Virus record (IMG/VR): IMGVR_UViG_2606217106_000020
Length of the DNA stretch: 41,681 nt
Strand: one strand, 5' to 3'
Source of the DNA: a virus
Lineage: Duplodnaviria; Heunggongvirae; Uroviricota; Caudoviricetes
Shown here piece after piece: positions 27,001-30,000 of the stretch (positions are counted from its first letter, which is position 1; each line of letters begins with the position of its first letter). The position numbers were made by a program.

Positions 27001-30000
27001 AGCGGTCGTTCTGGCGCTGATTGCTGCGGGCGCTTCTGCGCCTGAAATCCTCGACCAGTTTCTTGACGAAAAAGAAGGTAACCACACCACGGCATACCGT
27101 GATGGTGCGGGTATCTGGACTATCTGCCGCGGTGCCATCCTGGTGGATGGCAAACCTGTCGTTCCGGGCATGAAGTTGTCGAAGGAAAAATGCGACCGGG
27201 TTAACGCCATTGAGCGTGATAAGGCGCTGGCATGGGTGGAGAAAAACATCAGAGTGCCACTGACCGAACCGCAGAAAGCGGGCATCGCGTCATTCTGTCC
27301 GTACAACATCGGGCCTTCGAAATGCTTCACCTCAACGTTTTACCGGAAACTGAACGCAGGAGACCGGAAAGGTGCATGTGCTGAAATCCGCCGATGGATA
27401 TATGACGGCGGCAGGGACTGTCGGAACCGCTCAAATAACTGTTACGGGCAGGTATCGCGGCGTGACCAGGAGAGCGCGCTGGCGTGCTGGAGTATCGACA
27501 GATAAGCAGAATATTCTGCTGAAAAATGCCGTTGACCAACGCGAACGGATAACACGAAATCCTGCGAACTGGCAAAATTTAAGTGAGTAAAAGTAAAAAC
27601 CCCGTTTGTTGGCAGCAAGCGGGGTTTTGTGTTTCTGACCTTGAATAAGGCAAGGGAGAAATTATGGGTAGGGAGGTTCTTTCCCTGTGAGGAAGTATAA
27701 AAGATTCTTTCTGAGGTTGTCCATTATGAAAGGCATTGAGGTGGAGACGCCAGCAAGTCTGGATTTAACAAGAGCGGCAGCTTTTGCCATTCGTATTGTG
27801 GCAATTGCTGTTCTGGTCTGGGCAATCCGTTGGTGGTGATATGAATCGTGTGCTGTATGGCGTGCTTATTGTCCTGCTGCTTGGTTGTGGATCGCTGTGG
27901 CTGGCAACAGACCATTACCGTGATAACGCCATCACCTACAAAGAGCAGCGAGATGATGCGAAGACAAAACTCAGCCAGGCGAACGCCACCATTGCTGACA
28001 TACAGCAGCGCCAGCGTGATGTTGCTGCACTCGATGCCAGATACACCAGGGAGCTTGCTGATGCTAACGCGACTATTGAAAGTCTCCGTGCTGATGTTTC
28101 TGCTGGGCGTAAGCGCCTGCAAGTCGCCGCCACCTGTGCAAAGTCAACGACCGGAGCCAGCGGCATGGGCGATGGAGAAAGCTCAGGACTTACAGCAGAT
28201 GCTGAACTCAATTATTACCGTCTCCGAAGTGGAATCGACAAGATAACCGCGCAGGTTAACTACCTGCAGGAGTACATCAGGATGCAATGCCTCGATTAAC
28301 AGAGCCAGCTCAATCGCTGGCCTTTTTTATGAGGAGAGATATAACCTGAATCAATGCCAGTGCATTATCAACAAATGGATCACTGGGTAAGCTCGTTTGG
28401 TTTTAAATGTCCGTCGAGAATCAGATTGTGATTTTCCCGATGCAGAACCAGTGTGCCCATATAATCAGGTTTAAATCTCCATCCATTCATTTTTTTTGCA
28501 ATTCTGGACAGACAGTGATTATGTGTGAAAATCACAGTAACATGATCTGATTTTGATATTTTAAGGATATTATTTACTGCGTTATCATCACATGTCGATA
28601 TGTCCGGAATAGTTGCTGTCTTACCTCCCGAAAAAAAAGTGGCTGTCTGCATTGTTCGGAGTGTGTCTGTAGAATAGAGACTGTAGTATGGAAACATTCT
28701 TCTGAATTTATCTCCATATTGTTGAGCTTTGTTAGCTCCGTTTACTGTGATTCCCTCATGTGCTGAAAGACATATTCTTTGGGAGCGATCGCATCTTTCC
28801 CCATGCCGGATGAGAAAAATAATGGGATGTTTCTGGTTAATCTCAGTGACATCGTTCACATCAAGTCTGACTGGAGTTCTTACAATGTATATGATGGATA
28901 CAGAAACGATTATGACAAGTAAAAATATAAGAAGAGATTTTGTTAGCGTTTGATTTAACATATAAATTCCCTTGTCTGTGTTGAAAATGGGCATTATTAT
29001 GCGTAAATCTTATGTAATCCTTAAGGATTGTCTGACGTGGTGATATGACGCGAAATACAGTGGGTACACAGAATGCTGTGAACAACGACGAAATGGGCAT
29101 TGGTAGCGGTACTGGTGCTTTTTTTATTGGTTGGTTGCTCAAGTCTTGATAAAGCGCGTTAGCTTTTTGGTATTGCCTCTTAGGTCTGTAAAATTGCCGA
29201 CGGTGTCCGGCAGTGCATGCAGGGCTGATCGTCTATGAGAACAGAATATATTGCTAAAAATGAAGTGTGCGTCAATGCTTATAAAGCATGCAATTCTGTA
29301 TTTCTAACTATTCAATAAAATAAATTCTTTCTGTCGCAGTGAATATACAAATGTTGATCAGCGCTCGATGTGGCGACGGGTTTCTATATCAGGAGACTTT
29401 GGCATTTATCCGCGAGGCAGCCTATCTGGTGCTGTAGTGGAATGAAGCGGATATAACCTAAATAAGGTTAAACATTAATCAGACATGGCTCTGCTGTGTG
29501 AAATCTGAAAATTTACAGCAGTCATTGTGCATCAGTTTTTAACAGAGAACGTCAGAAGGTGACATGGCAAAGCTGGACTGGAAAAAGCTGGAGCAGGCAT
29601 TTCGACGCGAACATGTCAAAACCGGCATAAAGCTTCAGGATTGGTGCCGTCAGAACAATATCAGTTATGACACGGCTCGGCGGTACATTAAACTGCGCAA
29701 ACACTCCCCCAGAAATACAGAGAAAAGTGCGCAGAAAAATGCGCAAATTGATGATCAAAAAAGTGCGCAGAAATCTGACGGCAACTCCAGTCATGACGAG
29801 CCTTCAGGCGATGATGGTTGTGATGAAAAATGCGCAAATTTGGCAGAAACGAAACGGACTCGTGGTTCCAGACTTTTGCCACCTTCAAATGCTTTTTCTC
29901 AGCGTAACACCCACGCCGTCAGACACCGTGGATACGCGAAGTATCTCGAGGCAGATAACCTCATAGATGATGCAGTCGGAATGGAACTTGCCGATGAACT

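Follow-up and report, generated by a model that had tools for sequence, protein, structure and literature searches.

PmrG of Salmonella, which dephosphorylates heptose II (Nishino 2006, as cited in PMC8129183), and Ais of Escherichia coli are the closest described relatives of the gene considered here. The gene lies in the IMG/VR virus record IMGVR_UViG_2606217106_000020 (Caudoviricetes), a stretch of 41,681 nucleotides (nt) that was analysed in full and is referred to below as the window. The original prediction, made from this sequence alone, had described an AT-rich reverse-strand moron between the lysis and packaging modules, with a 193-amino acid (aa) product resembling the Ais/PmrG phosphatases of the lipopolysaccharide (LPS) core. 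Like PmrG and Ais, this product belongs to the NCBIfam subfamily NF011945 and contains the motifs RH[GA]ERCDRS, GIT, RTxQ[ST]A and FTHNHCL, and the resemblance extends to a similar size, a predicted N-terminal export segment, an AT-rich coding sequence and a probable link to PmrA/BasR. It differs from Ais in being only 43% identical to it, and from PmrG in falling under the equivalog cutoff for that protein. The setting also differs, as the gene sits in a prophage late region and not beside the arn (pmrHFIJKLM) operon, whereas K-12 ais adjoins arnB.

Several other systems resemble the locus in part. Bor, of lambda and 933W, is encoded at the same position, antisense at the junction of Rz/Rz1 and the packaging genes, and is an envelope protein presumed to be expressed by the prophage; the two proteins are nevertheless unrelated, Bor being a small outer-membrane lipoprotein and not an enzyme. 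TraG of the IncI1/IncI-gamma plasmids (R64 type) is likewise an Ais-family phosphatase borne by a mobile element, of about 194 aa and with the same catalytic motifs, but it is only about 36% identical over its full length (45.6% over residues 40–184, tblastn), and traG is co-directional with its neighbours inside the tra operon and has no PmrA box. SixA (PDB 1ujb) shares the minimal histidine-phosphatase fold, the size and the RHG nucleophile motif, yet is 11% identical, is cytoplasmic, acts on protein phospho-histidine and has neither an export segment nor a Cys pair. The prophage genes gtr and oac glucosylate or acetylate the O-antigen, altering LPS by lysogenic conversion during dormancy. 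The gene described here would similarly be a prophage gene that chemically alters host LPS, although gtr and oac encode O-antigen membrane transferases not known to use a PmrA box, whereas the phage phosphatase would edit inner-core phosphate.

On balance, we read the locus as a moron whose product, made on induction through PmrAB, would be a periplasmic phosphatase that is anchored in the inner membrane and takes a phosphate off the LPS core. Its components differ in strength. That the gene is real and functional is almost certain, and we assign its product to the Ais family with very high confidence. A promoter dependent on PmrA/BasR is likely, judging from conserved sequence, while LPS-core heptose(II)-phosphate as the substrate is a tentative assignment, a little short of even, made by analogy with PmrG. 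The features concerned are as follows, in window positions.

28300 to 29409, no strand: segment that differs from 933W-type phages and fills the bor slot of 933W (homology breakpoints)
28304 to 28321, no strand: G+C-rich hairpin GCCAGC-N6-GCTGGC in the gap where Rz and the phosphatase gene converge (terminator scan and sequence)
28380 to 28961, minus strand: coding sequence of the 193-aa Ais/PmrG-subfamily histidine phosphatase (open reading frame and family search; equals RefSeq WP_000934362.1)
28515 to 28526, minus strand: THNH, codons 146–149, second catalytic His region (H147 and H149 invariant)
28656 to 28658, minus strand: codon of R102, the second Arg, in RTMQTA (invariant in the family)
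28782 to 28808, minus strand: RHGERCDRS, codons 52–60, catalytic Arg-His motif with H53 as presumed phospho-acceptor (invariant in 30–32 members)
28881 to 28937, minus strand: predicted N-terminal membrane anchor SLLIFLLVIIVSVSIIYIV, codons 9–27, followed by a conserved R-T-P (sequence and AlphaFold2)
28968 to 28973, minus strand: Shine-Dalgarno sequence AAGGGA, 6 nt 5' of the ATG at 28961 (sequence reading; purine-rich counterparts at the same place in homologues)
28993 to 28998, minus strand: -10 hexamer AATAAT (A..A.T invariant in nine diverged upstream regions)
29009 to 29025, minus strand: putative PmrA/BasR box CTTAAG-GATTA-CATAAG, 10 nt before the -10 hexamer (one mismatch to YTTAAK-N5-YTTAAK)
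29037 to 29397, plus strand: relic of another lambdoid phage's late region with a truncated lipoprotein open reading frame at 29100–29162 (78–79% identity to a segment of the SE11 prophage)

The regulatory part of this reading rests on the interval 28962–29560, where a search for a PmrA box, as the original prediction had proposed, found a box that is phylogenetically conserved together with its spacing and its -10 hexamer. The predicted promoter reads CTTAAGGATTACATAAG, then 10 nt, then AATAAT, with the box in place of a -35 element. A sigma-70 consensus scan upstream of the gene found no complete promoter, and the 17-bp -35 position is occupied by AGGATT, which fits an activator-dependent promoter. 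Taken alone, the box is not significant, as chance would give 2.3 one-mismatch matches per window. Across the 160 nt upstream of nine diverged copies, however, nothing can be aligned except TTAAK-N6-WTAAK, 10 nt, a -10 hexamer (nATAAT), and then the ribosome-binding site and ATG; in one of the copies (L009) the box is perfect (CTTAAG-GACTC-CTTAAG). The same spacing is found in K-12 at arnB (CTTAAGGTTAAGTTAAT, 10 nt, TAAAAT), eptA (CTTAAGGTTGGCTTAAT, 10 nt, GAGCAT) and pmrR (CTTAAGGTTCACTTAAT, 10 nt, CATACT).

When these elements were combined into the composite pattern TTAAK-N6-WTAAK-N11-A-N3-T, the window contained one match, against 0.01 expected in its 41.7 kb, and every carrier locus contained exactly one, correctly placed. 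All 19 IMG/VR loci with upstream DNA likewise gave one match each, with zero off-target matches in 114 kb, and in two K-12 control loci (12.5 kb) the pattern found arnB, eptA and pmrR only. No match was present in SE11, 933W (whose bor locus differs from the phosphatase locus in this respect), POCJ13, the IncI traG loci, the IncF locus L017, the Salmonella locus next to an insertion sequence (IS), or the loci linked to fimbrial genes.

The assignment of the product to the Ais/PmrG subfamily, as originally proposed, is borne out by a score of 202 bits against NF011945 (PRK15416; curated cutoff 142) over residues 10–187 of 193. Pfam His_Phos_1 (PF00300) matches the N-terminal half of the domain (28.9 bits versus 21.7), and BLASTP aligns the protein with K-12 Ais over 158 aa at 43% identity (E 7e-44). 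All of the Ais-like motif blocks that had been named are present, as RHGERCDRS, GITVNG, LYSTDTLRTMQTATFFSGGK, VIFTHNHCL and FKPDY. Alignment of 30–32 family members, the check suggested for the catalytic His and Arg, did not give the refuting result: R52, H53, E55, R56, C57, D58, R59, S60, C64, R102, Q105, H147, H149 and C150 are invariant; of these, C57, within RHGERCDRS, and C64 make up the conserved Cys pair of the family. The RHG nucleophile motif, further Arg residues, a second His and the predicted fold place the protein in branch 1 of the histidine phosphatase superfamily. When the family profile was compared with PDB, RHGE and RTxQTA (RTMQTA/RTIQTA) aligned with fructose-2,6-bisphosphatase, and only weak matches to FBPase-2 and Sts were obtained; a PDB sequence search with the single protein gave no match at E<=1, and it falls in no PHROGs family. 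Automatic annotation in RefSeq has already named the gene, and the enzyme family is already known. What is new here is that the gene replaces bor, that its slot is conserved in lambdoid prophages unrelated to one another, that the family, with its four branches, is found on mobile elements, and that the PmrA/BasR promoter architecture is conserved.

The predicted anchor consists of 19 uncharged residues between K8 and R28. An AlphaFold2 model built on the family alignment (predicted local distance difference test score 91.6, predicted template modelling score 0.86) begins with a helix at residues 2–27, and Foldseek of this model against PDB returned histidine phosphatases only, with SixA as the best size match (TMt 0.70). 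The hydrophobic segment that had been described as a signal or anchor is thus present, but no small-x-small or Ala-x-Ala-type cleavage site was found in the N-terminus, in contrast to K-12 Ais (..GTHAAWS..), whose Ala-x-Ala-type signal differs from this long segment running from K8 to R28-T-P. We therefore take it for an uncleaved signal-anchor and not for a cleavable signal peptide; by its predicted topology, the helix probably tethers the catalytic domain to the inner membrane on its periplasmic side.

These observations suggest how the system could work. The gene would not be driven by the phage late promoter, having an activator-dependent promoter of its own with a PmrA/BasR box in place of the -35 element. 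BasS/BasR is activated by Fe3+, Al3+ or mild acid, and with such a promoter a lysogen should switch the gene on when BasS/PmrB senses these signals. A compact, SixA-sized phosphatase would then sit on the outer side of the inner membrane, in the path of nascent core-lipid A, and could strip a phosphate from the inner core of the LPS; by analogy with Salmonella PmrG, the leading candidate is that on heptose II. Loss of this phosphate would lower the negative charge of the surface alongside the chromosomal PmrA regulon.

The position of the gene agrees with lysogenic conversion. The window is 100% identical to a prophage of E. coli O104:H4 2011C-3493 (L003, NC_018658.1 2531605–2572865, overlaps the window), a 933W-like prophage with an N4-gp56-type capsid, a 933W-type terminase and an SASA/NanS-type esterase after Q, from which stx is absent. 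All annotated genes from Q to the tail are on the plus strand, with the phosphatase gene as the sole exception, so the opposite transcription noted originally holds, as does the location of the gene between an Rz-like spanin gene (27784–28299, phrog_13) and terS (29564–30379). Its low GC content is equally clear, at 37.5% (32.5% at third codon positions; 36.8% for the cassette) against 51.8% in the lysis flank and 50.8% in the terminase flank. Homology to 933W and POCJ13 ends at about 28136–28292, in or just past Rz, and resumes at 29410 upstream of terS. In 933W the intervening slot, between Rz/Rz1 and terS, is taken up by bor, which is antisense and carries the annotation 'expressed in lysogenic state'; in POCJ13 it holds a Rha-like gene. 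The SE11 prophage has no moron at the junction, its endolysin gene being followed directly by a lipoprotein gene, and relative to SE11 the prophage L008 has about 875 bp extra between these two genes that comprise only the promoter and the phosphatase gene, the minimal unit. A discrete insert with its own predicted promoter, the hairpin at 28304–28321 and deviant GC supports the view, from sequence comparison, that the gene is a lysogenic-conversion moron replacing bor in an stx-negative 933W-like prophage.

Of the two terminators originally placed around the gene, the hairpin at 28304–28321 stands, with a T-run on the plus strand (to 28331) and only a weak T-run on the minus strand; it may act in both directions and so also stop the converging phosphatase transcript. 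The other, at 29095–29120 on the plus strand, falls within the decayed part of the relic lipoprotein gene that once coded for the signal peptide; it was therefore rejected as a functional element of the moron and is probably incidental. The stretch from 28962 to 29560 in fact consists of the promoter (28993–29025), the late-region relic (29037–29397) and the 933W-type region upstream of terS (from 29410). The relic matches the part of the SE11 prophage that follows its M15 endolysin gene, where the counterpart is an intact 60-aa lipoprotein with the lipobox LLVGC (phrog_7528, function unknown); in the window this reading frame is shortened to 20 aa, which identifies it as a remnant. The same relic segment is linked to the phosphatase gene in L006–L009.

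Other prophages carry the gene in the same place. At 99% identity or more, the cassette is present in 43 of 5,426 complete E. coli genomes, from O104:H4 and other lineages including strain ML35, and a more sensitive search of the complete genomes raised the number with relatives to 83. Six diverged copies (82, 81, 79, 77, 68 and 67% nt identity; 51–76% aa) all lie in lambdoid prophages, in antisense orientation after the last lysis gene and before terS; these prophages differ in their endolysin (RrrD lysozyme, M15 peptidase or GH108) and terminase, and the prophage phosphatases in this slot of unrelated lambdoid prophages span 51–93% aa identity. The reading frame is intact in every prophage copy. 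Pairwise ratios of nonsynonymous to synonymous divergence (dN/dS) against the diverged copies are 0.15–0.25, with dS ranging from 0.65 to saturation, indicating that the gene is under purifying selection and old in this niche. The identical protein occurs on at least 1000 public contigs, Shigella sonnei included, and 20 IMG/VR viral contigs carry the gene. A tblastn search of 50,697 deposited phage genomes found it in one, GER2, and a literature search for a phage-borne Ais/PmrG copy found none.

Beyond the prophages, the family comprises four deep branches with 36–43% aa identity between them: chromosomal Ais, TraG of IncI plasmids, an IncF-borne type and the prophage clade. All four are AT-rich (35–43% GC); a low GC content is thus characteristic of the whole family and gives no indication of any one donor. 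The Ais-family histidine phosphatase of IncI-type conjugative plasmids, TraG, is present in 1440 plasmid records. On the pESBL IncI1 plasmid of O104:H4, TraG (O3K_25647) is annotated with the same product name (PMC4288162); as this TraG is also of the Ais family, the O104:H4 outbreak lineage has three such genes, namely chromosomal ais, the prophage gene and traG on pESBL. IncI TraG was dispensable for conjugation in a transposon screen (PMC4288162). The IncF-borne branch adjoins an EAL-domain gene, and the prophage clade itself also includes IS-flanked copies from IncF virulence plasmids, which lie close to AIDA-I or fimbrial genes and have 82% aa identity to L009.

Several points weigh against the reading of a PmrAB-induced heptose(II) phosphatase. 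The composite pattern was built from the carrier loci, which leaves the K-12 promoters as its sole independent validation, and K-12 ais, searched on its own strand, has no match to it, in contrast to the canonical box and -10 hexamer of the phage gene. The second half-site in the window is mismatched (CATAAG). The box is CTTAAG-N5-xTTAAT in Salmonella and CTTAAT-N5-CCTAAG at Klebsiella pbgP (PMC3973317), and the latter implies that position 2 of the second half-site, where the window deviates, is tolerant. A literature search for expression or PmrA binding of the phage gene found no reports. Although the subfamily part of the proposed heptose(II)-phosphate phosphatase assignment stood, equivalence to PmrG did not: the PmrG equivalog model NF052369 scores 113.4 bits, under its cutoff of 170, which makes the phage protein a paralogue and not an ortholog of PmrG. 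Together with the 36–43% identity to Ais, IncI TraG and the IncF branch, this makes any assignment of the substrate tentative. Removal of the heptose II phosphate is known for Salmonella PmrG only (cited in PMC8129183), and E. coli Ais is itself labelled 'putative' in the K-12 record. Finally, deleting pmrG from E. coli that is PmrA-constitutive leaves polymyxin resistance in place (PMC8129183). Resistance to cationic peptides as a stand-alone phenotype, one of the effects originally suggested, is accordingly unlikely; metal tolerance or receptor masking are the more plausible payoffs.

The failure of the PmrG equivalog model also bears on whether an enzyme of the same fold and regulation acts on another substrate, for instance heptose I phosphate or pyrophosphoethanolamine, the LpxT-made lipid A 1-diphosphate, or periplasmic or undecaprenyl-linked phosphate, so that the 'heptose(II)' label would be wrong for the clade. 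The depth of the four branches, at only 36–43% identity, the membrane-anchored N-terminus as opposed to the cleavable-looking signal of Ais, and the lack of a solved structure for any family member in the PDB sequence search all speak for this. We regard it as unlikely, if deserving of serious thought, as CDRS, GIT, FTHNHCL and Y167, which lie beyond the catalytic core, are invariant in all branches and suggest a shared substrate class, and as the PmrA wiring fits a function in LPS charge. We think it somewhat less probable still that the main benefit falls to the mobile element through masking of the surface, either by blocking LPS-core-dependent phages (conditional superinfection exclusion) or, in the plasmid relatives, by blocking recognition by pilus adhesins, with protection of the host from stress being secondary. 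The recurrence of the family on prophages, IncI plasmids (traG beside thin-pilus/shufflon genes) and IncF plasmids is in keeping with such a role, as are the use of the slot for surface proteins expressed by lysogens, such as bor, and the recognition of the recipient's LPS core by the R64 PilV adhesins. PmrA-conditional expression would nonetheless be odd for constitutive exclusion, and the dispensability of IncI TraG for conjugation (PMC4288162) also argues against it.

A role of the family in adhesin or fimbrial expression, and not in LPS charge as such, would account for the branches that adjoin chaperone-usher or CS1-type fimbrial operons or EAL-domain genes, for the IncF copy near AIDA-I, and for the name AfrS given to P0066, a protein of 150 aa with a match to the query along 45% of its length. 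It is very improbable given that the prophage clade has no fimbrial neighbours, that the protein has a phosphatase fold and an export or anchor segment and no DNA-binding domain, and that AfrS is only a name in a database and gene list. The least credible alternative is a gene that no longer has a function and is decaying as a passenger, its PmrA-like box being an AT-rich repeat that arose by chance. A one-mismatch box is indeed expected 2.3 times per window, and the adjacent 29037–29397 segment is a truly decayed relic. Yet the reading frame is intact in all copies, with dN/dS about 0.2 over saturated synonymous divergence, box, spacing and -10 hexamer are kept in every lineage while the flanks are unalignable, and the identical protein recurs on at least 1000 public contigs; with selection and conservation of this kind, decay is effectively excluded.

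If the PmrAB-induced core phosphatase is as we read it, a temperate phage would extend the stress regulon of its host, and lysogenic conversion would take place at the inner core and not at the O-antigen. The charge of the LPS core matters for tolerance of metals, for the stability of the outer membrane and for how phages and adhesins recognise the cell, and the gene occurs in the 2011 O104:H4 outbreak lineage, Shigella sonnei and ML35. Were the enzyme redundant with Ais, the gene would merely be a well-annotated accessory paralogue. The conserved box, spacing and -10 hexamer make capture by the host regulon directly testable. More speculatively, and in our view improbable as a whole, lambdoid prophages, IncI plasmids (as 'TraG') and IS-flanked IncF islands might share a dedicated class of Ais-like enzymes that act on the inner-core phosphates of LPS and so govern the docking of phages and pilus adhesins, the prophage version being wired to host PmrAB so that the core is changed only under metal or acid stress. 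On that view, this would be the first modification of the LPS inner core encoded by a phage, and a prophage gene would have been recruited as a true member of a two-component regulon of the host.

Some details of the gene and its relatives are of separate note. The frame 28380–28994 on the minus strand is the sole long open reading frame of the region, and within it the ATG at 28961 is the start common to all family relatives in the upstream alignment, giving 193 aa. A 204-aa form starting from the ATG at 28994 (28992–28994, minus strand) was rejected, since this codon overlaps the -10 hexamer and is absent in L008–L011, while the ATG at 28961 is invariant. Database entries of 204 aa, named 'aluminum resistance protein' or 'histidine phosphatase family protein', derive from this in-frame ATG and probably have the wrong start. 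A small RNA in the 600-bp gap upstream of the gene was also considered and rejected, as an Rfam scan of 27500–30000 gave nothing credible, only a sub-threshold rimP match (E 0.43). In GER2 (MG710528.1, L001:6181–6453), an Stx1 phage of E. coli O117:H7, the gene is annotated as a 90-aa fragment; the reading frame is intact and 99.5% identical over all 193 residues (tblastn), and the 90-aa call looks like an annotation artefact.

Among the plasmid relatives, traG of the IncI-gamma/K plasmid pHU590 (L016:2878–3462) lies beside the thin-pilus/shufflon region. Further relatives adjoin chaperone-usher or CS1-type fimbrial operons, EAL-domain genes or AIDA-I (L020:1–5594, L017:2366–4492, L012 and L005), and one source names P0066, the 150-aa relative, as the fimbrial 'transcriptional activator AfrS'. 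In a Salmonella copy with 70% aa identity (L018:4604–5001, AANEPZ010000033.1), the end of an IS3-family element lies 68 nt upstream of the start codon, precisely at the place expected for the PmrA box; only TATAAT remains, such that this gene may be uncoupled from PmrA control.

In the O104:H4 prophage, the SASA-family esterase occupies the place after Q where Stx phages have stx, and the accessory genes include hokD with Hok/Gef toxins, a Doc-family toxin, a RelE/ParE pair, the Cor exclusion lipoprotein and an Ail/Lom protein. The phrog_7528 lipoprotein of SE11 may be a spanin-like lysis component. The hairpin and T-run at 28304–28331 are strongly terminator-like and lie on the strand of the late operon, just after Rz and before terS, from which it follows that late transcription would need Q-mediated antitermination to get past them. 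The cassette is also present at 100% identity in E. coli ML35 (NZ_CP025747.1). This laboratory strain is widely used in permeabilisation assays of antimicrobial peptides, for which the cassette is a possible hidden variable.

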